From positions 34,658,001 to 34,722,000 of the forward strand of contig OZ287748.1 in the NCBI GenBank assembly GCA_965649765.1: DNA of 64,000 bases, in the 5' to 3' direction. Of the stretch, positions 9,358 to 59,839 are shown one piece after another. The notes beneath the pieces are model-generated. The model searched no databases, had not been told where the DNA came from, and worked only from the letters and a program-made list of their open reading frames with translations. This DNA is from Bispira polyomma. Its lineage: Eukaryota. Numbering within the stretch: position 1 is the stretch's first letter; every line of letters begins with the position of its first letter. Made by a program: the position numbers and the translations under genes.

Positions 9358-9388
9358 TGTCTGCCTATTTTGTAATATTTGTATGCAG

Positions 9389-10357: not shown

Positions 10358-12764
10358 CCTACCCCTAGTTAATTTGGTGTTTGGTGGTATTTTATTGTCA
10401 GTCTCTACATAGAACTTTAACTGTAAATCTTAAAAAATTGTAGAATAGTAAACACAACATATATACCACACACAATATATGTTGTCATGCAATAATTCAT
10501 TAACAGTAAAGAAAATAACATTTCTCTCGGCATAAGGTCCCCTTCCAGTCAACCAGTACATAATGTACTCATTTGGCTTTTGCTAATCCTCTTTTAACTT
10601 AAAACTTGAGCATTAGGAATTTATCTGCTTAAGGTGACCTCATACCTCGATTTTAGGTGACCTTAATAAACATTAACGTCACACTAAGTTAAAAGTTTAA
10701 GGTAAATCTTAATCTCCTATGGTCACCTCAACTTACCACTTTAAGGTGGTCTTAACTCTCATGCATTGTGAGCTTATGTGACTTTAAGGTCACCTTATGC
10801 CCTGAACCACAACTGTACATAGTAAGACTAGCTGATATTTTTAATAAATATTTTTAACCGCAATCTGTGTTCTGCTTCTCAAACTTATACCAAATTATTT
10901 TTACACCAGTTATAAAAAATTTGGCCGTCCTTCCCGAGGCACTGTAAAGAACTTCTATGGATGCTAATGACTGTTTGCATGATTATAGATGAATTCAATA
11001 TCATATCAGTGAGATTAACCCTGCCAAGGGAGTAAATACAATGACCTGACTGCCAGGGCTGTAAAGATTGTACACTAGGAAACAATGTATATGGATGCAG
11101 ATTACGCAAGCCTAGTGGACAAGCACTGCAACAAAGCCTTCTACAGTTGTTTATGTTTATCTGGCGCAAGTAGTCCATTATCACACTGTCATGATGGATT
11201 GGACATGATAAAAACCCCCTTGATTAGCATCCATCAGTATCAATATTCATGAGCTATAACTCTGGTATCTATAAAAAATTTTATATACATATAAAATAAG
11301 CATAATAATAGAGGTATGTGTGTGCAGTTATATGACTGTGGTATATTCACATCACATTGGTAAAACTTACCAGATGAAGATCCTGAGATTGATGCTGCAC
11401 ACAAAGAGCCAAAACATTGTTTCATTATTTCCAGAAATAATATTTTATAAAACCACATCACAAGGGGATGTTGAGTTCTCTCTTACCATTTTACTATTAT
11501 ACCCAACATAATTGTTAACACAGTACATACACCAGCACGCTAAAGACTCAGATCTTGGAATGTAAAAGCTTTACATACATTGTGATGCTGCAAAGAAAAT
11601 TGACACAAGAGTTGCTTTCATTTTTTCATTCTTTCAATTTTAAGCATGTGTTTGTCAAGGACTAAAGAAGTAATGAAGTGTGTGCCTAATACATGCAACT
11701 CATGACCACTAAACTTAGCTTACTTAAAAGTGAAATCTTTTGTATACATTTTTCAAGAAATAATGTATTATGCATTTTTAAAGTGCTTTATTGATGCGAG
11801 ACATCTCAACAACAGAATCCATTAACCAATTGAGAAGTCTAACAAGAGGAGGTAACTAGAGGGAATAAGTGAGTTTGAAGAAATATGTTTTAGGTATTTA
11901 CCCAGAAAACGCTTTGAGTAATCTGAACATTGTAGTTTACTTGATAAAGAAAGATTCTGTCCAAATGGTCCATTCCAGGTCCCTCTGTAGTATACCAATA
12001 CGGGGAGTAATTTCCCCCCTCTGCTTGATGCAGAGGTAAACTCTATTGCCAAAAGCTTTGCTGGTGTTAGCAGTAATGTCAGAAAATACTAGTATTTCAA
12101 ATAAGCACAAAGTACAAGGAAGTTGCTTTAATGAACATGATCAGAAATAAATGATGGAAGATAATTATTTGTAAAAAATATCTAAGTTGAAATTTTCTCT
12201 GTGTGTAGTGCAATGTTTTAGACCAAAATATGTTCATTAGGATCTTTGTTGATACTGAATTGATTTTTTTGAATTCGATATATTACCAACTAATGTATGT
12301 TAACTTTGAATGTGAATTTAAATAGCTTCTGCAGTGCCCCTAATTAAAATTGGACGTCACTTGACTAAGTAGCAAAACATTTTTACAATCAAACATAAAT
12401 ATATTTAAAAGCAAAGAAAAGTGGCAGTTTTATCCTTGTAATGTATTATGGTTAAATAATGTAGTATACATGAATAAAAAATGTAACAAGACAAAGATGC
12501 AAACATTAGGAGACAGACCTTTATCTTAGTACAGGAGAAAATTGTGGTGGGATGACGCCTATGCGACAGCCTCCTCAGTTTTGGTGGCAGGTCAACAGGG
12601 GACCAATTAGGCCACCTGGGGTCACGGGGGCAAGTATAAAAGAGTTTGCTGCCAACAGGCGCCATCATTATTTTAAAAGGATTTAATACATAAACAGTGT
12701 TTTACAACTGGGGCTTTACTACCCCTAATATTGTTTTTATACCTCGTTTTATATCTATTTAAAT

Positions 12765-17290: not shown

Positions 17291-18009
17291 GAAAACTGTC
17301 TGAAACTTACATTGTTACTTTTAAATATTAGGAGTTCACTGAACCTATAACTTTGCCCAAGTAATATGACTGTATTGACGATCTATTTACTGAGACTCCT
17401 AAGATATTTAGCTGCTCACAAGGGAGACAGTGATGGGGGGATAATGTTTGACACTTTGACATTTCTGTTTTAGATCCATATGATGTGTACTCCCTTTGTT
17501 TTTTTTTTCTTTTTGGATGATGTTACAGGAAATAATTGGGTTACCAGGGTTGGAGTGAGCCCCACTTTGCTGCTCCCTCAGAAAACATACTAGGACCCAT
17601 TACCGGCCAGGTACCTACTTGTACACCTGGGTACAGAGGGACAACTTCGTGTAAAGCACCTTGTTCAAGAGTACAATCTCGAGGCCTGAAGTATTCTGTA
17701 GTGTTGTGTTATGTTTGTTGGTGAAAATACAAAATTTAAAGTCTAAACGTATTGATGTCTGATGAAACACATTGATATAGATAACTTTTCTGTTTTTGTA
17801 AGAAATATGTTCCAGTAAATATCCAATATAGTGTTCAGTTCATCATACACATCAAATAATAGTGCAAGACAGATGGGAGGCAAGAGTGCACTGCAAAGCA
17901 TTACCTGTTCCATTATCAAGACTGATTGTGGAGAGGGGCCGATTGTATTATCTTGGCCACTATGGAGGCATTTTTAACATTTTGCATAAATTTAAATGCA
18001 AAGATTACG

Positions 18010-19443
18010 AAGCAACACCCTAGTGATGGTGGTTTTAGTTCTAGGGGGAACCGGGGGCCGCGGTGGCCTAGTGGTTAGCAAGCATTGCACTTCATAATCA
18101 CTAGTCTCTCACCTCTGGGTGGCGTGAGTTCGAATCCTGTCGATGCCTATGCGGGAAAGGTGGTAGTTCCTTACTGTGGGTCGCTGGTTTCAGTGCAGAA
18201 CCTTGATCAACTGTATGCAGTGTTTCCTCCAGCGTTTTCAACTACCCGTCCCAATATAACCTAAACAGGTACTAGAGTGGACGTTAAATATCCAAATTCA
18301 AAAAAATTCTAGGGGGAACCAGTCTACTCTTCGTCACGGTCATTAGCCAGTACTATAAAAGCAGTTGAAATTTGAACTGCTCTCCCTTTCAAACCTCAGC
18401 ACAGAAGAAACAACTTCATTCACCCTCCCTCCACCCATTCACCTTCCCTGTAGCTAATGCTTGTGGTATAGTTTCAGATGTTACTGAGTCTACCATATTG
18501 GAGCAGCAGTGATCCCTTAAGCAAGTCCTGTGTGTGCCTCTGGCTCCAGGCTCGTTTGTATTATCACTGTGTCTCCACTGCGTCCTGATTGGGTGTAAGA
18601 CGAGAAGTATTGTTTCCATCTAGGCCTTGTGACGAACTTTAAAACAAATGAATCCAGACTTCAGTGCTGTGGTTTTGCCCCGCCTGGGATCTCTGCTGCT
18701 GTACTAATAGATGTTACCGATTGTGTTTTATTTAAAGTTGTTGTTCCTCCATCTATATAATGTAGATAAGGGGTCGTATTGCTCGACCAAGAAAGACTGG
18801 GGAAAATGAGCTAGAGTGGGGAACAAGCAAAAGTGACTTTCAAGATGGCCGTCATATTTATCTATCGGGTTGGTTACCCTCAAACCACGAACTGTTGGTG
18901 TAGTACACGTTTAGAATGTGTTCGAATACCACCTAACCGTTTATAGTGCTAAAGGTCTCCTGCCAGCCAGCTGAATGTGCCACAAAACCGTTCATTGATG
19001 TGTCAACTAATGAACTTTATCTCAAATTGACAATTTAATGTCTTTTTTAACAAAATATGTACCATGCAATACAATTTACATGTCTTGTTTTACTCATTGG
19101 TGGTCTGAGACATCTATGTCTCAGCTGCATCACTAAAATGGTTTTGAACAACATCAAATAGTAAACGTCAAAACTAAATCACCTAGGTTAGGGTAACCTT
19201 AAACTTAGGTTCAAAAACTCTCACCTTAGTTATAGTCACCTTACCATGGTAACCTCAAACGTTTTCCAAATTCCTATCTTAATTTATGGTTACCTTAAAG
19301 TAAATTATATATGGTTACCTTATGCCCCCTTAAACTGAATTGTACATAGTAAATGTTAGCTTTTAAATAAACAATGTACCGCAATTTTCTTACTGTGTTC
19401 ATTCAAACTTAAGATCATGACTTAACTGGCCACCAAGGAACTG
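18010..19443 (+). mobile_element. Short non-autonomous A-spacer-B unit of a Ngaro-like element, with a SINE inserted
   Basis: TACTATAAAAG...AACAACTTCA, then CACCCTCC...AGTTTCAG as at 31118-31234; GGTNACC array 19180-19330; AATAAA..ACCGCAAT..CAAACTT; terminus GGAACTG. The left boundary is uncertain. Confidence 0.7.
18053..18306 (+). mobile_element. tRNA-derived SINE, same family as 13535
   Basis: A box TGGCCTAGTGG, B box GTTCGAATC and A tail; perfect 14-bp TSD TTCTAGGGGGAACC at 18039-18052 and 18307-18320. Confidence 0.95.
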
Positions 19444-27410: not shown

Positions 27411-27560
27411 TAGTAGGCAGCGCCCCGGCGCTGGCGTTTTCAGTTCAGAGTACCAGTCTGAAGCAGCTAATTAACCTCGTTGCGGCTTACTATAAAAGAC
27501 GGAGCATTTTAAATTCTCCCGCCTTTCTTATTTTCATTTACTAGGAACAACTTCAAAACA
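27411..27560 (+). repeat. Split direct repeat A1 (GC hairpin and TATA box)
   Basis: Repeated at 31039-31189 with a few substitutions and indels; contains TATAAAAG. Confidence 0.95.
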
Positions 27561-27663
27561 ATAGGCTTGGCGGTTGGCGGTTGAAATTTGAATTTTTGTT
27601 GATGCGCTTGGATATTTTACTTTTTTTAGTGTTTTAATTTTACATTGTATTTCCATGTTCACA

Positions 27664-28635
27664 ATGCCAAGTATTAAAGATTTTAGTTGTTCCAAGTGTG
27701 GGGGAAAACATGAAAGGCCAGTCGGTAGAAAATGTGTTTATTTCGTTGCAATACGTGGCTGTCGCCGGCTCCAGTGAAGCTTCTGTCTCCTCTCCAGGCG
27801 ATCTGATTTCTGGACAAATTCTAACGCAGTTACAATCCATGACGGAAATGATGGAGAGGATGGATCAGCGAGTACAGCTCATGGAGGCGGCGATAGCGGG
27901 AGACCTCACCAAAAATCAGGCGGGTAGTAGCTTTCTTTCTATTAATTCAGTGGTCGAACCAAATGTCGAACCTAGTGCCAGTGATAATGTCATTCCTACT
28001 GTCAAATTTCTAAAGAAAAACTTGGCCATTCAGACTCAAGTAGAGCAGAGATTAGTAGAACTTAAAGCTTTGAACGAAAACCCTACCCAAGGTAAGCTTA
28101 AATCCCAGTGAGGCGGGGGTACTGAAGTTCTGGTCAAGAAATTGGTCGAATGGCCTCAAAATTATGTCCTTACTGGTAGTCTTAAAACTCGTCCAAGTTA
28201 TGACGACCTCACTCTGAGCCAGTGGGTCTGTGGTTTTACTAGGATAGTACAAGATGAGAAATCACCGGAAATCCGCGAAATTATGTTGGAATACATGGCC
28301 AACTTGATGGAGGACTCCCAGGATTTTTCCTGGGAGTCAGCCAAAGCTTGTCACGCCGTAATACTCTCCACTATGGAAATGGACAAGCTCAAGTGGACAG
28401 AAGTTGACAAAATTCATCGTTTAAGAAGGGCGCACGCCCAAAGGCACAGTGTTGGTAGTAGCAGTCAGGGGAGTAGCAAAAATAGTGCTAAGTCATCTGC
28501 AAATTCTTTCAAGAAGACACGTGCAAGCATCAAAACAACCATAAGACTGGCACTACATATTTCTGACATGTGTGTGAAGGGTGCGGGGGTAACCACAAGA
28601 ACTCGACTTGTCATAAGAAGGGTTAAAAAAACTAA
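27664..28635 (+). pseudogene. gag ORF1
   Basis: MPSIKDFSCSKCGGKHERPVGRKC; GKLKSQ*GG; WPQNY..YDDL..FSWESAKACHA; CEGCGGNHKNSTC; ends AAA AAC TAA. Confidence 0.88.
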
Positions 28636-28917
28636 GGGGCCACTGCAGTAATGCAGTGGGCGAAAAAGATAGAAAGTGAGTTCTCAGTCGCACTGTATAT
28701 AATAAGGATTTCGATTCATTTCACTTGTTTGACAAGTCGGTGATTAAAAAGATGTGTACATATAATAGAGGTATAGCAAGTAAACATAGTTACAGCGAAG
28801 TCGTGGTCAAACCGCGTAGTAGCAGTAAATGTGTAGAAAATTGTGTGTCAAAAGGTGTACATAAAAATACCAGTATCAATGTAAATGTATTGAAAGAAAA
28901 ATTAGGGGGCAAAGAAA

Positions 28918-30957
28918 GTGCTCTCTAGACATGCAAACAAAGCAACAGTGGGGGCGATCAGAGCTAGGCAAGCACACCAGGTAAGAGGGAATATAATACA
29001 CCCTATTGTGAAAGCTCGGGCTCCTGTACTTGTAAACAGAAATAAAAAGTCTATTGATTTTAACAAAGCAAACAACCAGTGGCAGATTGACACAACTAAC
29101 AGATTTAGTGTGCTTGGTCGGCCTGACACCTCCATTGTTGAGGGCCACAGTGACAACACTGGAATTAAGTGTTTATGGGACCCTATTGTTAGCAACACAA
29201 TGACCAGTGGGGGAGAGTTTAGTCCCAAAGGTAGGGCAAGTATTTCTCGTAAGGGGAGTTCACCCTCACAGGTCAGTATAAAGAAGCAGAACAAAAGGTG
29301 TTTAATCAAGGAAAGCCTTACCAGTGATGGATGTTTATTCAATTCCAAACAAAAGCAGAATAAGTGTGAATTGTTGAAAAAAGCAAAAACAAATGAAACC
29401 CACATCAAATGGCGTGAACAAAACAAGGTCCACTATGGTTTTATCCCTTTGAATACCTTGGGTACAAAAATATGGGACACTAGTTCAGAAAATCTGGGTA
29501 CTGACATTTTTAAAATGCACAAATTGCTGCGAAAAGATGGTAGGCAAAATTTTAAAGGTCTCCAATTACCAGTAAAATCTCAGCTTCACCCTGATAGGTG
29601 GAAACAGTATTTGAGCAAATATTGGGATTGGCAGTTACCTCTACTCATTAAATATGGGTTTCCTCTTGACGTATGTCGGGATAGTATTAGGCAATCAAAA
29701 TGGTCTAATCATAAATCCGCATTGGAATTTCCCGAACACGTCGATTTCTTTTTGAAGGAAGAATGCGACTTTGGTGCAATGCTTGGGCCATATATGGACC
29801 CTACAATCAAATATTTGCATTTCTCACCAATGATGACACAAGAAAAAACAACCTTGAGTAAAAGGTGGGTCATCGTTCATCTGAGCTGGCCGAAGGGCAA
29901 CTCAGTTAACGCTGGTGCTTCACCCACTACCTACTTGGGTACAGATTTTATACTGTCTTATCCTTCAATAGATCACTTAACAAATGAGATATTAAAACTG
30001 GGAAGGGGTTGTAAAATATTCAAAATTGACATTAGTAGGGCGTTTCGCCGTGTACCTATTGACCCTGGGGACATTGATTTGTTAGGCCTGAAGTGGGATT
30101 CTTACTATATAGATAAGTCAATCCCGTTCAGTTATCAGAACGGGAGTACTATCTTTCAGAGAATTTCAGATGCTGTAAGATACATAATGTGCTCTGAAGG
30201 TCATAATGTCCACAATTATTTGGATGATTTTTTATGCATCTTGCTTCCAGGTCAAATTGACAAAATTTATACACGTTTACAGGTACTACTTTCGGAACTA
30301 GGACTGACAGTCAGCAAAAAGAAATTAGTCCTTCCTAATACCGTTGTTATATGCCTGGGTATCAGTATTGATACGGTTAAATTTACTACCTCGATTCCTA
30401 GTGAAAAATCGCAAGAAATTAAGAATATCTGTGTCAGATGGAGAAGTAAAAAATCTTGTACCAAAAAAGAGCTTCAGTCTTTGCTAGGTTCTTTATTGTA
30501 TGTAGCAAAATGTATCAGATATGCAAGAGTATATTTAAATCGAATGCTCGCATTATTGAGAGACAACCATAACAAAACTAGATTTCCTCTGACGGAAGAG
30601 TTTACAAGAGACCTTAGGTGGTTTATAACGTTTATAAATCAATTTAATGGAGTTTCTTTTTTCAATCATAAGCCTGTGGACGCAAAAAATTGAGTTAGAT
30701 GCCTGCCTAACAGGCATGGGAGGCATATATAAAAACCAAGTATATAAACTTTCAGTCCCTACCCATATGTCTCATAATAATATTGCAGCACTTGAAATGC
30801 TCAATATATTGGTAGCTCTAAAATTGTGGGCGGAGGCCTGGCGGGGATTCCGAGTATTGTTTAAGTGCGACAACCAGGCGGTGGTTAGTGTCCTTGAAAC
30901 AAGGCGAACAAAAGATCCAATACTTGCTACGTATACTCGCAACATATATATGTGGAT
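28918..30957 (+). pseudogene. pol: RT intact across a 591-aa frame; RNase H frameshifted near 30690 and truncated
   Basis: KIDISRAFRRVPIDP, IPFSYQNGSTIFQR, YLDDF, KELQSLLG; then LDACLTGMGG, LEMLN and CDNQAVV. Confidence 0.95.
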
Positions 30958-31038
30958 AATAAAATCTTAAACCGCAATCTTTTACTTGGTTATCAAACTT
31001 CATATATTATGTAATAGGACGGCTACACAGGGGAACTG
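30957..31038 (+). repeat. Split direct repeat B1 (3' remnant)
   Basis: 82 bp with one mismatch to 32349-32430. Confidence 0.95.
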
Positions 31039-31189
31039 TAGTAGGCAGCACCCCGGCGCTGGCGTTTTCAGTTCACAGGGTACCAGTTTGAAGCAGCTAA
31101 TTAACCTCGTTCGGCTTACTATAAAAGACGGAGCATTATAAATTCTTCCGCCTTTCTTATTTTCATTTACTAGGAACAACTTCAAAACA
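31039..31189 (+). repeat. Split direct repeat A2
   Basis: Copy of 27411-27560, directly abutting B1. Confidence 0.95.
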
Positions 31190-31970
31190 CCCACCCTCCA
31201 CTGCCCTTTGTAACTCTTGTTTTCTCAGTTTCAGAATGTATGGCATGGGAGAGCAGTCTGCCAGCACCTCTGCCTCAGTAGCGTCAGGGCGATGCTCAGG
31301 CTTGTTGGATGTGGTATGTCGCCCATCCTCGCAATCTCACTGGCGTCCCGCCAGCTTGTACGCTAAGATGACGACCAGTTATACTATTCTAGGCCTGTGG
31401 ACATGGCTTTGACGAACGTTAGACCGATTGGGCGGGTCGCCGTTACAGTGTGGATGTGTGTATTATGTGGTTGCTGGACGGTGCTCTTCAGTGTAATGTT
31501 TAATTTAAGGGTTTTCATTTATGTGCTTCCTCTAGTAGGTTAAATGTCAAGCTTTAAGGGGCTGTATTATTCAGCCATTTAAGACTTTTGCAGCTGAGCT
31601 AGCTGAGGAAGTTAATTAAGTCGATTGTGGAGTCATCCTTACAAGAGACTTGTGATGTAGCATGTAAAATAGCAAAATGCTCATGAATATCACAGACTTT
31701 GCTAGATGTCAATGTTACCCTCTTTTATACTGCCTTTGGAAGGAGAGCTGCTATGTTCAAGGACTTTTAAAAAGTTATTTTAAAATTTTAGTTTTTTAAA
31801 CTTTTAAATTTCTCTTATATTTTACTTATCTTACAGACATACATTTATGCTTCTATTTTATATCATGCTTTTACACACAGTATTATAGTGGTCTGCCACA
31901 TGTTATGTGACAGAACATTTTCACTTTAATGTATGAAAATAAAAAATTACAGTAACTATATTACTGTACT

Positions 31971-32430
31971 GGGCATAAGGTCACCTTACATAACAGTACA
32001 TAATGTACTCTTTCCTCTCAAATTTGATTCAAGAATCTTAAACTGAAGTTATATTTAAGTCTACCTTAACATGAGGTTGCCTTACTGCAACCCTAAACTT
32101 TACATGTTTCTTTTGCCTTAACTTGATCTTAAATTCAACTTAAGTAATTGGTAGACTTAACTTAAGCTGGACATAAGTTTTGATCCTTGCTATACTTAAC
32201 TTAATTGTATTTCAAAAGGTTTATTTATGGTAGCCCTATTCTTAAACTAAGGCTACCTTAGAAATTTCATAATTCCTGTAGTTAAGGTGAACTTATGCCC
32301 TAAACTCAGAACTGTGTACATATAGTAGTCTAACATATTAATGCCTAGTAATAAAATCTTAAACCGCAATCTTTTACTTGGTTATCAAACTTCATATATT
32401 ATGTAATAGAACGGCTACACAGGGGAACTG
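31971..32430 (+). repeat. Split direct repeat B2 including the palindrome array and poly(A) signal
   Basis: 32349-32430 matches B1; the upstream GGTNACC array resembles the post-YR tails of other copies. The left limit is inferred. Confidence 0.8.
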
Positions 32431-35400: not shown

Positions 35401-35643
35401 ACCAAAATTGTTATGGTGAGTTTGGGGGTAATAAACGCAAAGCTTCAGTCAGAATCGCCTGGTCCAAATTTGGACTCGTCCACTCTTGACCAATAGAGGC
35501 TGACCATCCAGTATATAAGCGGCTGCATCACTCCTCCACTTAATTATATTAAACTTTTATGTTAAATTAATTGAATAAATGCAATATAGGGTTTATTCCA
35601 TTTTAAATACTTTTAGTGACTGGTACTTCCCTGATTTTGTACT

Positions 35644-37033
35644 ATGGCGACTGCTCAACAGGATAATAATCAAAAGACTTCTGTGTTTTGTAAACGAGAG
35701 ACCAGAAAACTCGCATTGTTTAAAAACCCGACTTCCACAAAAGTTGGTAAGGAGTGTGATCGGCGTGAGGTGGGTCATCAAGAGACACCCTCCAAGGAGA
35801 GTGAACCGTCACATCGCCGTACTCACTCCAGCAAAAGCAATGACGCCATATTAAGCTCTGTCCTGGCTTCAGTGCAGAACCAACTGGTGTCATTAGAACA
35901 GATGGTTATAAGGCCTCTCTGCGAAAGTGGACACTCCTCGTTTGCGTGAGCCTGAGATTACCTCGGCCCCGAGAGTTGAGGCAGATGACCAAGAGCCCCT
36001 GTTTAACACGGGTGCAGTACTGACTAGTCCTTCTTCTAGGTATTCCAAGACATTTGAAGACACAGCAGTTCTTCTGCAGGACACGGTGAAAGCGAAGAAA
36101 ACTCCAGTCAAGAACAAGAAGCACAAGTTGACTTGAGAATGAGGATCTCGCCATGGGATGAGATCTCGCCTCTCACATATCAGGGTTGGCCCCAATACAA
36201 CCTCTCATGGGGAGTGGGAACTGGCAGCAACCAAACCGGCGGCCTGTACAGATACAACAGCCACACAACCCAACGTGTACTGCCACAGCTAGTGATGACA
36301 GGAAACGTGCTTTGGAGATGGACCCTGATGGCCCCACCACACTGGACTCCCTGAGATCTAATCCAATGGTGAAGGTCCTGGTGGATGAGTGGATTGCTGC
36401 ACTTGAGGCTTGTGTCAAACTGAAGATTGGGAAAGGTGGGCGGCGTCGCAAAAGCGGCAGATATAACACAACTGAGACTGCCTCCTCCCACATGAGATGA
36501 CCCAATGAGGCCTGGTTAATTGGGCCAAATAGGAAAAGAAGACAGACTTATGACCACTTGACAATGGGTAATTTTGTAATCGGCTTAGTTAAAAACATAT
36601 TAGACACACCTGAGCCCATCACTAGTAGGGCGATGCTGACTGAGATGGGCGAGACAATCAAACTTAGTGAGAATTTTTCCTGGAACATCGAGAGAGGGGC
36701 GTTTGCTGTCAGCATGCACCAATTCGATGATGGCTCTATTAACTGGACGGACACTCGCATCTTGGGGGACAACATGTTAATTTATTCCCAAACTGCAGCA
36801 GATCTGTGACCCTTCCTAAGACTACCCTTGTGGCAACAACTTCCACTACCAGTAAGAAGGTTGCGTGTAAATGGTGGAAAGAGGGCTCATGCTCTCATTC
36901 CAGTGACCACCAAGACAGTTCTGGACAGACTTTGTTTAGGCACATTTGCTACTACTGTTTTAAGGTCTTAAAACGGGCAAATAACCATACCGAGGCAGAA
37001 TGCCAAAACAAGAAGAAATCTACTACTGAATAG
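35644..37033 (+). pseudogene. gag ORF1, family B
   Basis: Fragments ending in CKWWKEGSCSHSSDH...HICYYCFKVLKRANNHTEAEC zinc fingers. Confidence 0.85.
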
Positions 37034-37040
37034 GACTAGC

Positions 37041-39126
37041 ATGACTGTACTGATTCATCACACCATGACTCTAATTTACTTAAGACTAGTGGTGGCGGGT
37101 GTTCTGTTTACACAACAGCCTCATCTCGTAGGGGGGTGGGGGGGGGGAGGCACGAGACTATCAATAGTTGACTCTTACAATTTAATTTCTAGCATGCATG
37201 GCTCTTATAACAACCTTAAAGACTTGAAAGTGAGTGTGTTTGTAGGCACTCCCCTTTTTAGACTTTGCACCCCTGAATGTGTCAGACATAACATGTGTTT
37301 CTGTAATAGTGCGGGTTCTCAACTCGTAGTTAATGATCCTCGAGATCAGATATCACAAGACACTTGTTGGGAGAGCCGGCCTCCCGTACACCAGGGTGTA
37401 GAAAAGAAAGTTAAGTTTAAAAATAAAGTTCCATTCAATAGAAAGTTTGGTTTTGTAGCTAGTGATACTTTGGCTATAAATGCCCCAGAGGGGCCTCAAG
37501 TTGATATTGATAGTTTAGAACATTATTTGTACATGGCAGACCAAATCAAGGACTCGGGTGTCCCCAACTATAAGGGTTGCAGATTTCCCCTTCCTTCAGC
37601 CTTTATTGGCAAGGTTGGAACGAGTATAGAAATGGTTATCATGATCAGAGGTTGTTTGACTATGTCAAATATGTTTTTCCATTGGGTGTAGCCCCCAATC
37701 ACCATATTAGCAGCACTGCCTCCGAGAATCATCACTCTGCGAAGTGTGAAATCAAAGCCATTGAAAAATACATTTCAATTAAATTTATAGAAGGAGCCTT
37801 ATTAGCCCCTTTCAAAATATTTTCCATTCGGATTTTACTTGGGCCCCCCTCAGGACCAGGAATAAAGATGGGGGCTCTTTTGTAGATATCTCATATGGGA
37901 ACACCTCAGTCAACCAAGCCATGTGCTGAGAAACCTATGATGGTAGTCAGTTTACATTAGTTATCCCCCACATTAATGATTTAATTCCTCAACTCACCCA
38001 GTTAGGTGATAAGGCCAGGTTATTTAAGGCTGACATTTCTAGAGCATTCCGTAACATCAGGATGGACCCTGTGGATGCTATTCATCTGGGCATCTCATGG
38101 GATGGCAGGTACTATCTGGATTGAAATTTGCCCTTCGGGGCTGTCCATGGCACTTCTATCTTCCAGCGATGCACAGATTTCATAAGATATATTAGAGTTT
38201 ACATGGTTACACAGTGTACAACTACATAGATGATATTTACGCAGTTTTGCATCAGGATCAGACACAAGCTGCTTTTGAAACTCTACTGGCAGTGATTAAA
38301 TCCTTAGGTTTTCCCCTCAACCCCAAGAAAATTGTTATTCCCACTACATGTATTACCATTATGAGCATACAAATTGATGTGACCAAACGAGAGTTCAGTA
38401 TTTCCCCTGAGAAAATAGAGGACATTATGACCACTTGTAAAACTAGCATTATAGCCCACCAGGTAACTAATTAATCACTACAATCACTATTAGGTAAGCT
38501 TCTGTACATATCCAAATGTGTCCCAGGTTCTCGAGTCATTATTAACAGGCTTCTGGCCTTACTGAGACTTAATAAAGATCAATGGGTTTTCCCTGCCGAT
38601 GAGGCATATCGAGAGGACATTTTATGGTTCATAGTCTTTTTACAGCAGTTTAACGGTATAGCGTATTATAAAAGTGAATCTCGCCCAGACGAGGTGTTTG
38701 TAGATGCAACTTTGACAAGGCTGAGGGGTGTGGAAAGACCACGTGTACTCGGTGGCCATTGCCCCACCCATATTAAACATTCTATCCATCAGCCACTATG
38801 AAATGTATAACGTCTTGGTGGCTCTAAGGTTGTGGGGTCCACAATGGCATAATTCAGATATTCATATTCGTTGTGATAATGAAAGTGCAATCAATGTAAT
38901 TACTACTGGTAAAACCAGAGACTCCTTTTTGGCCCTAGTTCTTTGGAATTTGTAGCTTATATTAGCAAAATACAATATAAAACTCATAGTATCACACATA
39001 CCAGGTAAACTTAATCAGACAGCTGACAAGCTGTCTCGTTCAAGTCAAAGTCAAGTCAGGAATGATTTTACTGACAGTGTCATAGAAAATGTACATCTGA
39101 ACATGATGTTTTTGTTTGATTTGTAA
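37041..39126 (+). pseudogene. pol: RT plus RNase H
   Basis: ENHHSA, KADISRAFRNIRMDP, LPFG, YIDD, VDATL, EMYN, CDNES and NQTADKLSR, with many shifts. Confidence 0.9.
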
Positions 39127-39132
39127 TTGTAG

Positions 39133-40094
39133 GCATGTCACCCCACTTGTTACCTATGTTGGATGCAGCTATGCAGAGATCCCTGCATGCTATACAAACC
39201 AGTACCCAGAGACAGTACAAAAATCAGTTTAGACTGTTTGTGGCATTTAATATTGTTTTTACCAGATTCATGATTGTGGGTCCGAGGCGACCATGTTAAT
39301 GTTTATAGAGTTTCTAGCATCACAAAGTGTAACATATGGGGTGGTCTTTAACTATATCTCTGCAGTGAAATTCTTTTTCATTAAATATTCCTTGCCCCAT
39401 ATGGTGTTTAAGGCACCAATGGTTAAAAAGGGCCTCAAGTCCCTCATGCACACAGGCCCTCGTACCATGAGAACCAAAGGTATTTTTTCCTTCCAGCAGT
39501 TGAATGAAATCTCACGTCTGTGCAACGTGTGTGAGAGTTCACTCACATATCTAACAGCCTTTTTAGTGGCCTTCTACAGCTTTCTCAGAATTTCCAGTAT
39601 TTCACCAAGCTCCAGTACACAGTATGACCCCACCAGGAATATTTGTAGGGAGGATGTCACATTTCAATACCCAGGTGCCCACATAGCATTAAAATGGACC
39701 AAAAATTTGCAGGGCACCAAGCCAACCTCACATTATAAAGTTACCCTGTGTAGAGAACCCCCTGATGTGCCCAGTTCGGGCCCTCAAGTCACTGCTTGAT
39801 AAGTTTAAAGCACCCCAAGATCCTCTATTCTTGATCGATCATTATGAGATATTGACGCAGTCTTTGCTTAGATGCAGTTTAGCCTCATTCTTGAGAATCA
39901 TGGAAGTGCCACTTTTAGGGCACGGTTTCCGTACCTTTCGTTGTTATGCATAGCATGGGAATGTAGATATGGATAGCATTCGTATGCATGGTATATGGAG
40001 GAGTAATGCAGTCTGGTCTTACACCAGCTCCAACACTTCTCAAACCAACACATTCTCTCTCACTTTTCAACATTTGGTAAACTCTTCTACATAG
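39133..40094 (+). pseudogene. Tyrosine recombinase, frameshifted
   Basis: FYSFLRISSI, KWTK, MCPVRAL, (H>R)TFR and HGIWRSNAVWSY. Confidence 0.88.
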
Positions 40095-42873
40095 ATGCTT
40101 TTTTTGGGCTTGGGCTATCAATTCCCCATTTTGTAAACTTATGTTATGACTAACTTTTAGAAATTAATAAAATTGATTCCCAAGTCGTTAACTCCCATCT
40201 TTTCAATTCTCATTTATTTCCTGGACGAGATTCTGACTGAATAATAATATATGTCACTGAGAGACATGGTGGTTGGAAATACGTGCCAAGACCTTCAACT
40301 GTATTTCATATTTGACTAACAGTACATTTATTTTTACATCAGTAAAACCTCCACTTTCCAAGATCTGGAACAGCTGCAAGGATATACAAAACAATCTATG
40401 TACTGTTATTTATGTCAAAGTTATTTTTAGCTATTCAGTCATTGCATTATGTAGTCACTATTGCTTATCATTTATTTTACTTCTTAGATATTTTAAAATA
40501 GTAGCTTTAAAGTTTATGAGGCTTTTCATACAATCGCTTCCATCTTTATTGTTTTTATAAACCTCATACGCTGGTAAACAAGATTCATTCCTGGTTCAGG
40601 TGTTCTTATTTAAGTTAACCTGATATTCTCATGTTATCATAGCTCAATCTATTCCTGTGTTTAAAAGTAATGTTGTCAATCCTATAATGTACTCATGTAC
40701 CATAAAAGTTGATTGCATCATATTAATTATTTCTGGTTTTCAGATTTATGTAAAAAAAAAAACCCATACAAATTCAATAGCTCAACATGTGTTGTACATC
40801 ACACATTGTCAATATTTCTGTACCTTATTGATATATCAATTTTTTACCTGAGTTTGATTTCTATATATCCATTGAATCCATAATTCTGGGTGTCAGTTAC
40901 AATATGTGATTTTGATGATAGAATGATATATTTTGTTTTACAGATTTTTTTTAAAGTTTTTATTGTCATAACATGTCTTTGTAGTCAATGCGATATTAGA
41001 GTCCCAGGTTTTTTTATGATATACCATCGATAGAAACAGAATGCTTCTGTATAGCCTTCCTGAAGGCTTGAGTTTTGTCAAAACCTGTGTTCTGTGTTCA
41101 ACAATTTTAGAAACATGCACATTTAACATGCACATTTAATTTAGCAGAAAGCACTATTAACATCCAAATATTACTCTTGTTGCAGAATACAAGTATCATA
41201 AGGGGAAATTATGCATGCATAGTTGTGGCACTTAGAAAAATTTGTAGAAACAAAGTAAATCCACTAACTCATTAGCTTTACACATCTATTAGCTCAACGT
41301 TATATAGGAATTTAACTATTTATCATTTCAGTTTAAGGTTTACTTAAATGTTTAACTATAACTTCGTCAGCTTCTGTGGATTGGGCTGTATACTGTGTGC
41401 ACATAGGTGAATTTAATTCCAAGCCCATAATCATATAATCTTTATTAGTGAGGAAACCTTGGGATAAAATTTTACATTGTGAAGCTGTATCCCCAATAAC
41501 CAACAACAGATGATCATTGACTCGTGTTGAATATTTTGAAACAAGAAGTAATTAGTTCAGTGTGGAGTTACAGTCTGAATAGGTACTGCTGTAGAGAAAT
41601 AGTAAAAACTTGCAATATGAGTTACAGTATAACTTTCAGTTGCTTTTTTTGTAACATAAAACTCGATGCTTAAGATAATAAAATGATGACCTGAATAGAT
41701 GCCAGAACTTTGTATATTTGAACTGACAAGAGATATTGGAGATGAACACTTGTTTCCAACATAACCTATCTTCAAAGTACACACAATAAGTTACAGTAAT
41801 AGACGTTACTTACAGCTAGTGCTTCCTTTTCTGCACATTTCTGTAGTGTGTGTAAACAAATGTGCTTATTATTGTGGATCTATTTATGAAAATATTTGAA
41901 TTATTTTTAATATTGAGATCAAAATTGTCTTGGGCTGGTCTTCTATTTTTATTTAAGTGTCAGAAAAAAATCAATGACACAAAAAAATAAATATACAAAC
42001 AAATCTGTAGACATTACTGTGTTGACAACAAACCATCATCGATTTTCTCACCCTATTATGTGAAAATATACTTTCGTTGCAGCCAGGAAAGCTCTTTGAA
42101 TAATAATAAAGGGAGGAGTAAATATGGGGTTAATAGGGAGAATTCACCAAGGAGACAGTGATTTGCATTGTGATGGTGGGCTGAGTAGGTTACCCACTGG
42201 GAGATGCTGTATTTTGGGTGCTACAGATAATATGTCAATGCTTGTGGCAGGACAATATATAAAGATATTTCATCTTCAAGAGGTTGTACAGAATTTGTAA
42301 GATTTCTCGGATAAGCAGATATAAGATGTCTGTAAAGTTTTAACAAGAGTATCGAACTAGGTGGGTCAATTGTAAATACTGATAATTACCAGTAGTCATT
42401 AAATAAAGAAAATTACTATTTTATAATTTCATTTAATTATTCCATGTATATTAAATTTTAATGGTTATTAAATGGCTGCTAGGATATTATTTTTCATTTG
42501 GCCTGCAAAATCTAGGATGAACCATTCGGATTGGTTCAAGAGAACCTTTGTATGACATTTTACTTTATTTTATGATATGTTGGTGTTATATAGTTCATTA
42601 TTGCCATGCACCTTTCTGTGAAAGAAATTTTAACTGCTAAAATATTGGTGGGCTGACGCCTATGCGGCAGCCCCCTCAGTTCTGGTGGCAGGTCACTGGG
42701 GGGCCAATTAGGCCACCTGGGGTCATGAGGGCAAGTATAAAAGGGTTTGCCGCCAATAGGCGCCATCATTAATTTAAAAAACTTTGCTGGAACAAGAGTG
42801 TTTTACAACTGGGCCTTTACTACCCCTACTATTGTTTTTAAACCTCATTTTAAATTATACATTATCTGTGATT

Positions 42874-43781
42874 ATGCCTAATAAGGAATATCCGTGTAGT
42901 GTATGTTCTGGCAGACATGAACAGCCGGTTGGGAAAAAATGTCGTTATAGCTTGGTAGACAGCGTCGCTGATGAAGTGGCTACCGTCGGTCCTGCTACTC
43001 CAGAAGTCTCGGATCCTGTTTCCAGCCTTATACTACAACAACTGGTGGCCATGAATGAGAAGATGGATAGCATGGATCGACGAGTACAAGCTACTGAGGC
43101 GGCGCTGTGCACTCCAAGCGCCAGTAAGGCATGTAATCTTTCTTCTAAAACTGATTCTAGTGCAACCAAGGTTACTGAACCCGTGGCTGAGGCCGTTATA
43201 CCCTCTCTAGAATACTTGCGTAATAATGAAGGTTTGCAATCTCAGGTTGATCAGCGGCTACTGCAATTACAGCAGTTAAACGATATTACCGGAGGTAAAT
43301 TTAAGTCTCAAAGGGGTGGTGCTGAGGCCCCATAAAAAGAAATGTGGACTGGCCACAAAATTTTGTCTTATCTGGCGTCAAAAAAGTTAGACCCACGTAT
43401 GATGACCTTTCTCTGGTTCAGTTTATATCTGGTTTTATTCGTTGCATTCAAGAGCAAAAAGTCCATACTGCCCGAGAGGCTATGTTAGACTATCTCGTGA
43501 ATTTAATGGACAACGCCCATGATTTCTCTTGGGACGCCGCTAAAGCTTCACATGCCATATTGCTTACCAATATGAAACTGGATCGTCTCAATTGGACAGA
43601 CACTGACAAGGTCGACCGGATATGCCGTGCTCATGCACAACGTCATATACCCTCGGCATCTAGTGGGTCTAGCTCTTATAAAACCAGTAGTAATGGTAAA
43701 AACAAAAGTCAAGGTAAATCAAATGGTGTCAATTGTCGTTTCTTCCAGGAAGGAACATGTAACTTTAGTGCTAGCCATCGC
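42874..43781 (+). pseudogene. gag ORF1; 1-nt deletion near 43330 and 3' end deleted
   Basis: MPNKEYPCSVCSGRHEQPVGKKC...GKFKSQRGG, then WPQNF...CRFFQEGTCNFSASH. Confidence 0.9.
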
Positions 43782-46163
43782 ATGTTTGTTTTAATTCTCG
43801 TGTGTGTGTAAAGCCAAGTGTACGACGTTCCTATCGGGACGTGTTGATAAAAAAGACAATGGGTGCCCCAAAAACTTTCAGTAGAAAACCCAGTGTGGGC
43901 GAAATTTGGGAAACAAGCCAAACTGAATCCCAACCAGTTAAAGTTGCTCTCAAAACGTTTGCATATGGGGGTAAAAACGTGGGCTGTTAACCCGTTGTTA
44001 ACAATCAAGTGCTTTCCAAAAATAATATGCCAACCAAGAGCTGTGACCATTTCAATTCAGTTAATATGTCAAGCAAAGGTGACGCCTCCATTGTGAATTC
44101 CAAGTTAAATGGTGTCAAACAAAACCACGAGAGAAAAAGGGCCCCCATTGTTGAAACAATTAAGTCCAGCTCGGTGAAAAACAGCAATCAACCCGGCGAG
44201 TTTCAATTAGCCCTTCATAATAGGTTTGATTGTTTGGATATCCCTTGTGTAGAAACAAATGGTGTTGTCGACGACCAAGGGGGGGGGGGGGGGCAAAGCG
44301 GGTGAAAAGACTGCGCCTCTGCCCAAACAAGCTACTACTAAATTGATTCATTGTGATGATAAGTATGCCTTAGACCTCCCTAAAGGCCCTGACAAAAGAA
44401 AACACTTGAATGATGCACAAGACTGCGTGACTTACAAATTGTGGGACATCCAAAATAGTGGTAAATATGGGTTTATTCCGGTGAGTGATTGGGGTGACCC
44501 TGTGAAAGACCATTCTGGTGACAGGCTAACAATGGATGTGTTCACCATGCACAAATATCTTAAATTGGATGGGCGTCCTAACTATAAAGGACTTCAGATA
44601 CCCGTTAGTACACAACTTAATGCCCCTGTGTGGGCCAAGTATCTAGTAGACTACTGGAATTGGGAGCTTCCTTTATTGATAAAATTCGGGTTCCCCCTTG
44701 ATTGTGATAGAAAACATGAGCTTAAGTCAGAACTTAGTAATCACTCTTCTGCCACCCAGTACCCTGATCATGTGACACACTATCTAACGGAAGAATGTCA
44801 GTTCGGTGCTATGTACGGACCATTTACAGTCCCCCCCATTGGGGATATCCACACTTCACCTTTCATGACCTGACATAAATTGAGCTCGGTTAACTGACGG
44901 GTAATCATAGATCTGAGTTGGCCACAAGGCCATTCGGTTAATCCTGCGGTTTGTTCCAACTCGTAGTTAGACAAAGAACTTGTGCTTACCTACCCGTCTA
45001 TTGATACTATCACCAGTCAAGTCTTGGCCATGGGTAGGGGATCACTCATATTTAAGGCCGACATTAGTCGGGCATTCAGGCACGTGACCATCGATCCGAA
45101 AGACATAAATCTATTAGGTTTGTACTGGGATGGGTATTACATTGATGGGTCACTACCTTTTGGCTATCGACACGGCTTGGTTATTTTCCAGCGAATTTCG
45201 GACGGAATAAGGTACACAATGGAGAGTGAAGGTCACCACATTACCAACTACATCGACGATATCTTATGTTGCTCTATTCCTTCGAAAATACACAAAACAT
45301 ATGACCGATTACAAGCACTGTTAGTAGAGCTGGGTTTAACCCTAAGCCAGAAGAAGCTGGTTCCCCCCTCTACCAGAGTAACGTGCCTGGGCATTGTTAT
45401 AGACACCATACAGTTCACCACCTCCACAGGAGAAAATGGCTGCCATTCAGACTATGTGTAGTAAGTGGGTGACCAAAAAATCTTGTACCAAACGGGAACT
45501 TCAGTGCTTACTTGGTTCCTTACTTTATGTTTCTAAGTGTGTCAAATATTCACGTTTTTTCTTGAATCGAATGTTGCAACTCCTTAGAAGCAATCATAAC
45601 AGTAAAACCATGAAAATCACCCCCGAGTTTCGCAGAAATCTGAACTGGTTTGTGGCGTTCCTCAATAAGCATAATGGGGTAACCTTTTTTCACCATGTCC
45701 CCACTACTGCCACCATAGAATTAGATACCTGTCTCACTGGTATGGGTGGAGTATATGGGCAGCAAGTTTATTTTCTCCCCATACCTGCCTCCATGCAGAA
45801 TCAAAACATCGCCTCATTGGAAATGTTAAACATATATGTTGCTTTAAGGTTGTGGGTTGAACAGTGGGAGGGTCAAAAGATACTCATAAAGTGTGATAAC
45901 CAGGCTGTGGTTAGTGTCCTCACCCATGGTAGAACTCGTGACTGTGAGTTGGCTCTCTACTCACGCAATATATTTATGTTGGCCAGTCAGTTTGACGTTA
46001 AGCTAAAAGTCATACATATTCTAGGTGAGAACAACACTGCTGCAGATTTGCTGTCCCGTTGGACTAACTCAGTAAAGGATAATGTTCTCTTGCAGGAGCT
46101 GGTGGGCTTGCCTCAGTGGTGTCCAGTCTCAAAACTACTTATTGCTCAATCATGAAATTTAAT
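43782..46163 (+). pseudogene. pol: RT plus RNase H, with stops and frameshifts
   Basis: KADISRAFRHV, LPFGYRHG, YIDD, LDTCL, LEMLN, CDNQ and NTAADLLSR. Confidence 0.95.
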
Positions 46164-46202
46164 GTATATATGTTGTTCTCCTGCCAGTGTTCTGTTTTAC
46201 AG

Positions 46203-47194
46203 ATAGAGATCTCCTGCAACAGTTATTATACAAAAATGCAACCAAGAAACTGCACCTGGCTTTCTGCAGATCAACTGACAGGTCCTACACAGCCATGCAA
46301 AGGCTGTATTTGGCTTATGCCTCTTTCATGAATCTGCCTTTTGACCAGGTGACAGTTTTTGACTTACTTGCCTTTTTAGAACTGTTGCAACACAATTCTG
46401 TAAAACCAGCCCATATGGCAAACTATCTATCTGCCATTAAGGCTAAATGTATTGTTTATAATGTTCCCTCAAATGCCTTCAGTGACCCACGCATTGCCTA
46501 TTACCAAAAGGCGGTACAGCTAGCTGCCCCCCTTCATGTTAAGCTAAAGAAAATTATTGACATACCCACTTTAACTCATATTGTTAAAATTTCTCTCACT
46601 ACTTATATGGGTGTGATGTTTAAAGCCGTTTACCTTGTCAGCTATTTTTCTTTTTTACGCTTGTCGAATCTAGTCCCCCATTCTGCTTTGCAGTTCTCAC
46701 CTCTTAAGCATCTGGCTAGGGCCGAAGTTATGATTCACAAGGATAAAGCTGTGCTCCTAGTGAAATGGCCAAAGACCATGCAAAGCAACAATCAAATCAA
46801 ATTAATCACTATTCCTAGGCTTTCGGGCTCCCCTCTCTGCCTGGTGAGGTCACTGGAGGACATTTTGCTGCTAACCTCCCCTGAGCCTAACTCCCCGTTG
46901 TTCCAATTCAAGGTTAATGGCAAGTGGTTGCCTCTAACTGATACTCGAGTGCGTCAGCATTTTAAAGATATCCTTGCTAGGTTGCAGCTAAAACATTCTG
47001 GCCTTACCTTTCACGCTTTCCGTCGTTCAGGTGCCACTTTTGCTTTCAATCATAATGTCAGCATTCAAAATATTCAAAATCATGGCACCTGGACGTCGGA
47101 CTGCGTGTGGAGGTACGTCACAGACTCGGTGGATGCTGGCCACCAAGTGGCTGACACCTTCAAACAGCATCTTTCCACTACTTCTTCCTCCTAA
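46203..47194 (+). CDS. Tyrosine recombinase, uninterrupted frame (probably exon 2 of a spliced Gag-YR mRNA)
   Basis: Open frame with FLRLSNL (R), KWPKT (K), HAFRR (HxxR) and HGTWTSDCVWRY (Y); preceded by the acceptor TCTGTTTTACAG. Confidence 0.88.
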
Positions 47195-50100
47195 GTCCTA
47201 TTGTTGGGCTTTGGGTGTTTGTAGTTAATAATACCTCATGCGTAACAGTTGAACTATTACGTAATTTCATTAAATTATTGCCTAGTCTAGTCTAAATGTA
47301 ATGTACTACATGCTAAGAATGTTAACCGTACTATCACTTGCACGTGGCACTATTACTTTGACTTTCTATTACTTTATTACTTGTCTGTCAATATCTTTAA
47401 TTTGACACCATTGTATAAAAGTGCAAGGGCTAAAGTTCAAACTCTCAGTCATAATTTATGGTCACCTTACTGTTGCTAATTGCCTACGGGCTGTGTGATT
47501 TCCATAAACAAGTAAATTTGCGTAAGGTGACCTTTAAATCTTTAATTATGTTACATAAAATATTTATGACTTTAAGTGACCTTAAGTCACTTACGTTGCT
47601 ATTTAAATTATAATTTACCTAAGGTGACCTTAAGTCACCCTGTTTAAGTTGTTATATTAAATTATAATTTACCTAAGGTGACCTTAAGTTGCCCCGTTTA
47701 AGGTGACCTTAAGTGTCACGCTGTATTAAAACTTATATGATGCAAGTCATCTTGTACATAGTAGTTTTAACACTTAGATTAACATAATAAATATTTTACC
47801 GCATTCTGTGTCATTTATATCTTGCCTTCTTGACCTCTGACCCCTCTGGCCTGTCACTCGGGGAAATGATGATCCAAATCATCACAGAAAACTCCCTATA
47901 AAAAGCTCCATTAATTATGGCTACTCACATCTCAGCACGTTTCATATTTAGTTCTCAATATATGTAAGTTGCCTTGGTACATGAATTAATATGATGAACA
48001 ATCTTTTTCCCCAGAAAGTACTCGGAAAGATGTGTTAAATAGTTGTCCATCAGAAAAACATCACCACACTAAAATCCCTTGCGTGCCACAGAAGTAGAAA
48101 ATGGAACAAACAGCATTCCATGCTGTGATCTTCTTACTCTACAAAAGGACACTAATGCTAAATGAAGGCCACTAAGAGGTCATATTGCAAACCAATAGTG
48201 ACTGCACAATATGCAGTAAATTGTTTATCTTGTGTTTGATATTCACAGTCCATAGGAAATGTGATGTTACTACTACAGTATATCCATAGCCAATAAAATG
48301 GGTATTTGTCTACCACTGGCAAAATTTGTTATCATCTCACTCCCCCATGGCATCCCTTAAGGTTTTTTGTTTGGCCCTCTCCTCTTCACCATGTTCAACA
48401 CTCCCCTTTGTAAATCTCTTAGTTTAGCGTCACTTATCAAGAATTATTCCCATGTTACAGGATTTTGTCATCCACATATTTACTACCATCACTTGTCTGA
48501 ATATAAAAATCTGCAACCTGATATCTGATTTTACTTATTACTTAAAAGATACAATGGCTCCTAATTCCCAGTTATCTTTAAAATCCATGTCAGTACTTTC
48601 AATGTTGTGGTCCTTCACCAGCGCTCTACCCTACTATCTTTAGCAACGTCAACAGACCAAACAACTCTCTGTTTCTTTTGTTAGACCCGACAGATGGACT
48701 GGAGTTAGGGCTTTTTAAAGACTGTCCCAATGTTATGGAACAAAAACATCCCAGTTGAGCCCAGATCACAAGAAGCACTTTTTGATTTAGGAGAAAAAGT
48801 AAATCCTATCTTTTAAAGCTTGCTGAACGACCCTTAATTGTTTTGTACTCACATGCTACTAAAATAAAATTAAAATAATTACAATTTAAAGATGGTCGTT
48901 TAGCTACCAATTTTGATCGGTATCTACGAACCTTTATTATAATTATGTCCCATCTTTTTGATTGGCTCCAGATTGTATCATACACATTCTAGTCACAATG
49001 TAATTACCAGGAAGTAAAGCATTTGAAGGCATATGTCATATAAGTATTATGCACATAATACTATGGCAGCAAAGTGACTGAATATCGACAGAATGACAAT
49101 TGTACCTTTTTTGTCTATCTAAAGTCTACAAAGTATTGCTTGACATCTTAGAAACATTGTAACATAATTGCATGATGTTCATTTTTTTCCAGAGAGATAT
49201 AAATCAATACCATGATAACCGACCAAAGCTATACATATAAAGGTGATGACCCAGCGTAAAGTGGTACTTATGACATTATTTAAGTTTAATATTGAGTGAC
49301 TTTTTGCATCTTAGCTTTCATAACAAACAGCTGTCCGTACAGGTATTATGCACATTATTAGCAATAAAGTTTTAAATTTCTATGGATTGATCGGTGGCAC
49401 AATTTATCATAATGCAAATGTTATTAGAATTAGTTTTTTTTTCTAAAAAGAATTTTTTGTTTGTTTCTGGAATCATTGGAAATTGATTATCTTTTCATTG
49501 CATATTTAATGATTAATAGAATGTGCCCCAAAAAGAGTTCCTATCAACAGAACTCCTTTTACTCCTTTATGTCTGATAAAAGTCTATTAAAGTGATATGA
49601 TAGATGCTGCCAAATAGCAATTGCCATTTACCATTTAATTAAAACAGGAGAATAGTGGGCAGAACTTAAAAGAAGGATTAAAAGAAATATCTTTACAACA
49701 CATTGTAAAAATAATTAACTGAAGCCTGTAAATGGAGGAAAAAATAAGAACGTAACAAGAACCAGACAACCAGACACTTTTAAGTCAGGGTCAAAATATC
49801 AGTGCAACAACGAAAAGGCACTTATCTGTGTGCTATAATTAAATTACAAGGTAATAATTTTCTGCACCTTTTATCTATTTACTTTTTTCAGGGGTGTATG
49901 TGATTAGTTAATAATGCCCTAAACTTTAGGTTATGATTTTACCCATGTATATTTGTTTGTCACCAAAATGCGAAAAAACTATATGGAATTTGGTGGAGAG
50001 ATGGAGTAAAGGCTAAGGAAGAATCCATCATGTAATGTAATGGGTATAAGTGCAGACCGAATTACTTTTTTTTTGCATTATGGCACCTTGGCAAGCACAC

Positions 50101-59738: not shown

Positions 59739-59839
59739 ATAGATCCACATTATTATTATTTGCTATTTGTTACAATTGTTTTATCAAATTTTGATTAATT
59801 AAAGATGTTCTATCTAAATCTATAAGGTTTTGACAACTA

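Follow-up and report, generated by a model that had tools for sequence, protein, structure and literature searches.

Canonical double-stranded recombination sites of tyrosine recombinases (YRs), those of the loxP and dif type, consist of inverted arms around a spacer of 6-8 bp. The spacer of dif measures 6 bp (PMC4246890). At the integron attC site one strand is exchanged and replication provides the resolution (PMC3458562). The attP(+) site of CTX phage needs compatibility with its target only next to the cut and is inert once double-stranded, and the VGJ phage exchanges one strand on double-stranded sites (PMC4246890).

Another group of YR substrates belongs to retrotransposons of the order DIRS. 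Ngaro elements within this order are described with the arrangement A1-ORFs-B1A2B2, the gene order gag, reverse transcriptase/RNase H (RT/RH) and YR, no methyltransferase and no target-site duplication (PMC8547959, PMC4157794, PMC9210276), all of which holds for the elements described here. For DIRS-1, single-stranded DNA is reported as cDNA copied from the mRNA, and the authors favour a double-stranded circle; the same account describes the substrate and specificity of DIRS-order recombinases as without experimental study as of 2020 (PMC7192593).

Ngaro-type elements in the window

The window, that is the whole 64,000-nt stretch of DNA analysed, contains several retroelements whose frames encode RT, RNase H and YR. 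Their full plan, known from other copies in the searched genome (eukaryotic and likely animal, 1.04 Gb, 75 contigs), reads A1 - gag-like - RT/RH - YR - B1|A2 - unique spacer C - B2. The split direct repeats (A1-ORFs-B1-A2-B2) have their internal copies 3' of the YR, spacer C between A2 and B2 is unique and 49-1034 nt long, and the genes lie on one strand in the order gag-like (named by position only), RT/RNase H, YR. A methyltransferase domain had no Pfam match in 22 frames, and an RH frame ending at 46155 is followed by a YR frame starting at 46163. Because of the direct repeats, the gene order and the absence of a methyltransferase, the window elements are classed from their sequences as Ngaro-type YR retrotransposons, an assignment by plan rather than by placement against named references. 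A PAT-like identity was rejected because no methyltransferase domain follows RT/RH, and a genome search for the methyltransferase family, for DIRS1-like or PAT elements to compare, gave no match. Long terminal inverted repeats and an inverted internal complementary region are absent from the window elements; the latter was rejected because the repeats are direct.

The copy at 27411-32430 (+ strand, as are all elements of this type listed here) retains its internal junction. It opens with A1 (27411..27560), followed by broken gag-like frames (27638..28651; named by position, no Pfam match) and a truncated RT/RNase H region (28906..30955; RVT_1 E 1.7e-07). About 1.7 kb has been lost, comprising the RH end, the whole YR and most of B1, in a deletion that joins RH (~30955) to the last 82 nt of B1. 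The first-pass annotation had taken 30957-31038 as B1; its end is exact, but the segment is this 82-nt remnant (30957..31038, with AATAAA at 30958-30963) and not the full repeat, a full-length B measuring ~545 nt. A2 follows at 31039..31189, with TATAAAA at 31120, then the unique spacer C (31190..31887; in the family's reference copy its sense frames reach 52 codons at most) and B2 (31888..32430), which closes the element with GAACTG at 32430. Just past A2 lies a pyrimidine tract ending in AG (31172-31235; 86% similarity in another family) that has the look of a spacer-C splice acceptor.

Short forms of the plan A-ORFs-B are found for family F1 at 6400..10944 (arms 6430-6435 and 10939-10944), for family F5 at 35423..40239 (11-bp perfect arms, 35446-35456 and 40229-40239) and for family F4 at 42646..47868 (long imperfect arms, 42677-42736 and 47821-47868). 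Within the last span lies an open YR frame (46163..47194, 343 aa stop to stop; PF00589 E 0.0022). The left end of a second F4-like element occupies 12545..12581, with CAGT at 12576, and an F6-related copy at 18006..19443, its start read by eye, is likely an A-C-B remnant whose 3' arm, TAGTTC from 18036, is interrupted by a 254-nt insertion. Short forms are frequent in the genome: the YR stands directly before the right end (A-ORFs-B) in 51 of 121 classified right ends, and 7 left ends run into spacer C. Such short forms may be products of recombination between B1 and B2, or of replication.

Several further features accompany these elements. The 254-nt repeat is SINE-like and present in two copies 92% alike (13535-13788 and 18053-18306), the second interrupting an A repeat with a flanking duplication of ~13 nt; Rfam and ARAGORN gave no Rfam or tRNA match for it. 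An inverted repeat with arms of 24-25 nt occurs within the YR coding region at 47012-47107 and 10201-10287, in the same place in two families of ~55% protein identity, and the B repeats hold arrays of AAGGTGACCTT-like palindromes (47523-47714, 10530-10800, 19180-19330). A reverse-strand RT fragment of a related element (16187-17258) lies beside the 3' part of the element starting at 12545. Reverse-strand frames at 55733-58562 (RVT_1 E 5.7e-20) have no nucleotide match to the YR elements, and 59317-59739 is a tandem repeat with a unit of ~103 nt. Elsewhere in the sample, an F4-like element at locus L238 (oriented 1371-7878) carries an F13 element ~7-10 nt within its left-end hairpin.

The B|A junction hairpin

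Junctions were sampled from 120 stretches of 10 kb, around YR matches of three different queries and around known ends, set by self-BLAST repeat boundaries and then shifted to the nearest TG|T (0-2 nt in family references). Among the first 80 stretches, 35 had adjacent and 2 non-adjacent A and B repeats, 4 were skipped for tandem repeats, 2 were without a YR match, and the rest missed one or both repeats. The next 40 gave 14 with adjacent repeats, made up of 11 true junctions, 2 host repeats (L317, L321) and an ambiguous case (L323) in which the same 5 nt after both B ends precede a hairpin-less repeat, possibly a local duplication. Twenty families were grouped by eye, one subfamily (F5b) being left out, and a metagenome locus (L164; YR ~29% identical, junction located by motif and not by repeats) brought the number to 21. 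The metagenome scan gave 4 loci, of which only L164 has a junction, none being recognised in the short downstream DNA of L161-L163. Related loci were not found in viral and genome contig collections; junction-pattern matches in viral contigs, among the matches listed, were taken as chance. The tree is mainly YR-based and contains only elements found in this analysis.

In the 20 families and the metagenome element the B|A junction reads ACTG^T-(24-40 nt)-T-CAGT, with ^ for the cut, or a one-base variant of it; all 21 read TG^T-(24-40 nt)-T-CA, and each is predicted to fold as a single imperfect hairpin. In the 27411-32430 copy, the last bases of B1, GAACTG (31033..31038), form the 5' arm of the outer stem, the predicted YR binding arm, with the cut at 31038|31039. 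The 30-nt core (31039..31068) begins with a +1 T opposite the T at 31068 and continues with a weakly paired centre, a predicted inner stem (31046-31049 with 31058-31061) and a loop. The 3' arm, CAGTTC (31069..31074), lies within A2, and A1 has the same core with its CAGT arm at 27441. The first-pass annotation had pictured two arms flanking a hairpin-containing core; the pairing stands, but arms and inner hairpin make up one continuous imperfect hairpin with T.T at the junction. The ends that it listed are exact (ACTG at 10944, 19443, 31038, 32430 and 40239; AATG at 47868), as are the CAGT starts at 6430, 27441, 31069, 35446 and 42677. Its offset of 30-32 nt between element start and CAGT applies to the copies starting at 6400, 27411 and 31039 (30 nt) and at 42646 and 12545 (31 nt), but not to the 35446 copy, which starts at 35423 and has a core shortened to 23 nt, 8 nt below the 31 nt of its family. 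A fixed 30-nt spacer was likewise rejected for the families as a whole, the range being 24-40 nt with no clear helical period.

Watson-Crick pairing, with one copy per family, is found at positions -1 and -2 in 21/21, at -3 in 19/21, at -4 in 20/21, at -5 in 21/21 and at -6 in 17/21, and the +1 position at the cut is a T.T mismatch in all 21. One family carries AATG/CATT, a compensated change in the core motif itself. At -5 the pair is G-C in 12 families, A-T in 5 and C-G in 4; with family-majority states on the YR tree, this amounts to at least 5 changes on each side, all coinciding, a result reached by none of 3000 independent-site simulations. Position -6 is Watson-Crick in 19/21 with family-majority states, with at least 8 co-changes (0/3000 simulations), and +3, within the core, is paired in 17/21 (5/3000); -7 and +2 were non-significant in the tree test. 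RNAalifold returned the same 9 pairs with T.T left open, and controls with slid partners were 32-43% paired, against 89%. At least five of six Watson-Crick pairs occur in 20/21 families, compared with 9.3% (10859/116299) of other element positions given equal spacer freedom, a contrast that is not a p-value because the families are related. An inner stem of 4-9 Watson-Crick pairs starting from +4 to +8 is present in 13/21 by a simple longest-stem rule, and in several families it is short (4 bp) or off-register. The distal arms are weakly complementary (59/20000 permutations). The F5 clade has asymmetric bulges, whereas the loops of other families are more symmetric.

Covariation across families was the check that the first-pass annotation had itself named, and the junction passed it in the tree simulations, RNAalifold and the slid controls. 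The imperfect complementarity that it had noted within pairs holds across families, but single pairs are modest against shuffles: for five window pairs the score was reached by 118, 17, 62, 0 and 13 of 2000. Taken by itself the window junction is non-significant, its folding z lying between -1.2 and -1.9 on the + strand and between -0.1 and -1.1 on the - strand. With single pairs and the window junction only modest, the case rests on the family comparison, which confirms the predicted junction hairpin as real and conserved across 20 diverged families. The element class itself is known; the hairpin adds a new feature to its structure.

Strand asymmetry

The sense strand folds better than its complement in 17-19 of 21 families, by 1.1-1.4 kcal/mol with DNA energies over six arm lengths. 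Among the non-Watson-Crick states from -8 to +6, G.T occurs 37 times and A.C twice (~25 versus 2 in parsimony steps), beside 50 purine-purine and 36 pyrimidine-pyrimidine states, and G skew is positive at the junction in 19/20 families compared with 2-8/20 in four flanking windows. The distal arms reverse the trend (G.T 5, A.C 11). Copy-level departures, intended as a neutral control, are skewed too (G.T 5, A.C 1), and of 13 single reference copies with 24-nt arms, 5 gave the more stable fold on the antisense strand. For attC, a strand asymmetry of 2.12 kcal/mol and G.T pairs at 1.24 versus 0.39 are reported (PMC5027507); the G.T values in Ngaro-type junctions are 0.91 versus 0.20. With RNA energies the sense-strand bias is greater (-4.0 versus -1.4 kcal/mol). 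The internal junction is likely transcribed, and the bias fits RNA equally; the strand data do not separate RNA from (+) DNA.

Scars and targets

Insertion scars were read from 131 distinct right ends and 95 distinct left ends, deduplicated by flank, the left ends including one sister-family junction (L130). An earlier count on fewer loci had omitted 4 left ends; one of these, L109, was a genuine flank in which 5 nt match the end of B. Across the 131 right ends, the match of the flank to the beginning of A is 0-4 nt long, at most 4 nt of A being carried, and the first 6 nt are kept within 2 mismatches at 95/95 left ends. The two ends overlap by 0-3 nt in 59 elements with both ends, and several insertions in host repeats equal the empty site letter for letter. 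A target-site duplication and a shared trinucleotide were both rejected. From the end and empty-site data it follows that the cut point is single, that scars are of one type and that neither a duplication nor overlap homology is involved. Truncated right ends, the mirror scar, were not found: 8 of 139 ends have at least 3 mismatches in their last 9 nt and, by eye, seven of these are small indel shifts and one has point changes. Two staggered YR exchanges without homology should leave two scar types.

The target shows a loose preference. At +1, A is found in 69/131 (1.62-fold, p 1.4e-6), T in 42 (0.99-fold), C in 11 and G in 9, both depleted; overlap homology would favour T at this position, where T is at background. 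At -2 the base is A or T in 92/95, A is raised 1.56-fold at -4 and G 1.9-fold at -5. The resulting host consensus, G-A-N-W-T^A, bears a loose likeness to the outer arm of the element. An A at +1 would pair with the hairpin because the base opposite +1 in the folded strand is T, a suggestive reading of the preference and nothing firmer; it may instead reflect protein contacts or DNA bending. Target positions +2 to +4 do not match the hairpin partner (40 versus 38, 28 versus 30, 29 versus 33), +1 to +4 agree with the element no more often than chance, and A also shows a mild excess at +3, +4, +5 and +8.

Permuted elements were not seen. None of 75 junctions leads into gag, nor does any of the 26 first found via the B-end and junction searches able to show such copies, and the sole 'gag' call is a copy with a longer A. 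Contigs from two sequencing runs, aligned to the junction, contained no joints, although such contigs are uninformative on ends and strand. Their absence counts against a double-stranded circle because its two equal junctions should yield permuted elements.

The recombinase

The model of the YR (pLDDT 88) takes a Cre/Xer/IntI fold, with Cre (Z 16.9, rmsd 4.2, 272 aligned), the integron integrase IntI (Z 16.0, rmsd 4.0, 248 aligned) and archaeal Xer (Z 16.0) in a tie. IntI has a hairpin-binding insertion. A PDB sequence search with the YR profile gave no match, and the predicted model is uninformative on substrate form.

Proposed mechanism and alternatives

The first-pass annotation had suggested a YR recognition site. 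This remains the best reading because the cut falls at an invariant structural place and host targets resemble the outer arm, but it is not a standard double-stranded inverted-repeat site, its spacer ranging between 24 and 40 nt and its pairing differing between the strands; a folded single strand is the better fit. The alternative in the same annotation, a fold-back used in priming or strand transfer, may also apply. That the junction hairpin is a folded single-stranded recombination site on sense (+) DNA, recombined by one strand exchange, is given about an even chance of being right. The fuller proposal, that Ngaro elements enter the chromosome as a folded (+) single strand of DNA, with one strand exchanged and replication resolving the product, as a eukaryotic counterpart of integron cassettes and CTX phage, is advanced tentatively, at slightly less than even chance. 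Reverse transcription would expose a new B2|A1 junction as (+) single strand, freed by strand displacement or extruded from a circle, which would then fold. One YR monomer would sit on the outer stem and cut at G^T while a second occupied the inner stem; a double-stranded host site with a loose resemblance to the outer arm would be the partner in the exchange of a single strand, and resolution would be left to host replication or repair. While double-stranded, the internal B1|A2 copy would be inert, its role being that of template for the new junction.

The sense-strand bias and its increase with RNA energies suit equally well a hairpin of RNA or RNA-DNA hybrid, which might pause or guide RT for template jumps, prime synthesis or aid read-through of the poly(A) signal in B1, while the YR used a short double-stranded motif and exchanged one strand like the VGJ phage. 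In 13/20 families A has a TATA box 62-152 nt from its start, and in 17/20 B has an AATAAA 52-179 nt from its end; the ends must therefore be restored from the internal copy of the junction, and a 3' hairpin has been proposed as the DIRS-1 primer (PMC7192593). Such a role would leave unexplained the cut at an invariant stem mismatch (21/21), the near-invariant CAG partner triplet, the +1 A preference and the absence of permuted insertions, and it is considered unlikely, with perhaps one chance in a few. Covariation as such is expected of any inverted repeat, including a double-stranded bipartite site with inverted YR boxes, ACTG and CAGT, that stay unpaired and are joined by looping or by an inner-palindrome cruciform on a supercoiled circle. 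The weak complementarity of the distal arms without G.T bias and the ordinary, Cre-like YR fold accord with such a site; the G.T excess near the cut, pairing that goes on inside the core at +3, a spacer without phase and the missing permuted elements do not, and it appears distinctly improbable.

The arms could also be the shrunken relic of a DIRS1-like inverted terminal repeat (ITR) that holds linear cDNA ends for ligation before textbook integration of a double-stranded circle. DIRS1-like 'divergent ITRs' of 9-36 bp with terminal extensions (PMC3266345) are shaped like the arm and its 30-nt extension, yet exchanges of that kind without overlap homology predict a second scar where one was seen, and the genome held no DIRS1-like element for comparison; the chance of this being so is slim. 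Chance complementarity, or shared ancestry without function, could account for the z of the window junction alone and for an inherited ACTG/CAGT, but is refuted by the compensatory changes on the tree and by the same design in the metagenome element at ~29% YR identity, and its probability is close to negligible.

Returning to the folded (+) strand, the finding names a substrate of 40-55 nt, its likely strand, the cut bond and a target preference, and the recombinase question thereby becomes testable with oligonucleotides. To our knowledge, folded-strand site-specific recombination is known only from bacteria and phages; if the proposal is true, it operates in animal genomes too. It would then replace the double-stranded circle model for Ngaro and account for insertion without homology or duplication, the silent internal junction and the missing permuted copies, and recombination of one hairpin with another could be a source of the common short A-ORFs-B and A-C-B forms. 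Genome engineers might take an interest in a YR able to place a hairpin-tagged strand cleanly into loosely specified targets.

Comparison with known systems

A description of this hairpin was not found in the Ngaro and DIRS literature searched; supplements, other papers or Repbase notes may mention it. The published Ngaro accounts cited above describe direct repeats only, whereas the elements described here have a covarying junction hairpin and scars of one type; the unique spacer of 49-1034 nt between A2 and B2 likewise goes beyond the plan given there. Compared with loxP and dif, the arms are 24-40 nt apart and element and target share no overlap homology. DIRS1-like elements are YR retroelements as well, with single-stranded cDNA shown for DIRS-1 (PMC7192593) and ends that, as here, combine imperfect terminal complementarity with a terminal extension (PMC3266345); if the proposal is true, they may share the geometry. 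In contrast to them, the Ngaro-type elements have no long inverted repeats, no inverted internal copy and no methyltransferase, and their targets share no triplet of the kind in the DIRS1-like published model, 3-bp homology on a double-stranded circle.

The closest likeness in shape is found among folded bacterial and phage sites. The attC site is also an imperfect hairpin with a conserved triplet pair at the crossover, a loose centre, a second stem and a variable loop, with G.T pairs and G skew on one strand (PMC5027507), as in the folding computed here. The triplets differ, CTG/CAG here and AAC/GTT in attC, and in the Ngaro-type hairpin the cut lies at the inner stem edge by a T.T mismatch, with no fixed extrahelical bases shown. 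Unlike attC, the Ngaro-type junction belongs to a eukaryotic retroelement with its own YR and has neither an attI nor a cassette array. The attP(+) site of CTX, acted on by XerC/XerD, is likewise a folded (+) strand with two binding arms and a mismatched centre, cut at the border between arm and centre (PMC4246890). CTX depends on host recombinases and a fixed dif target, whereas the Ngaro-type elements bring their own enzyme and enter many loosely defined sites.
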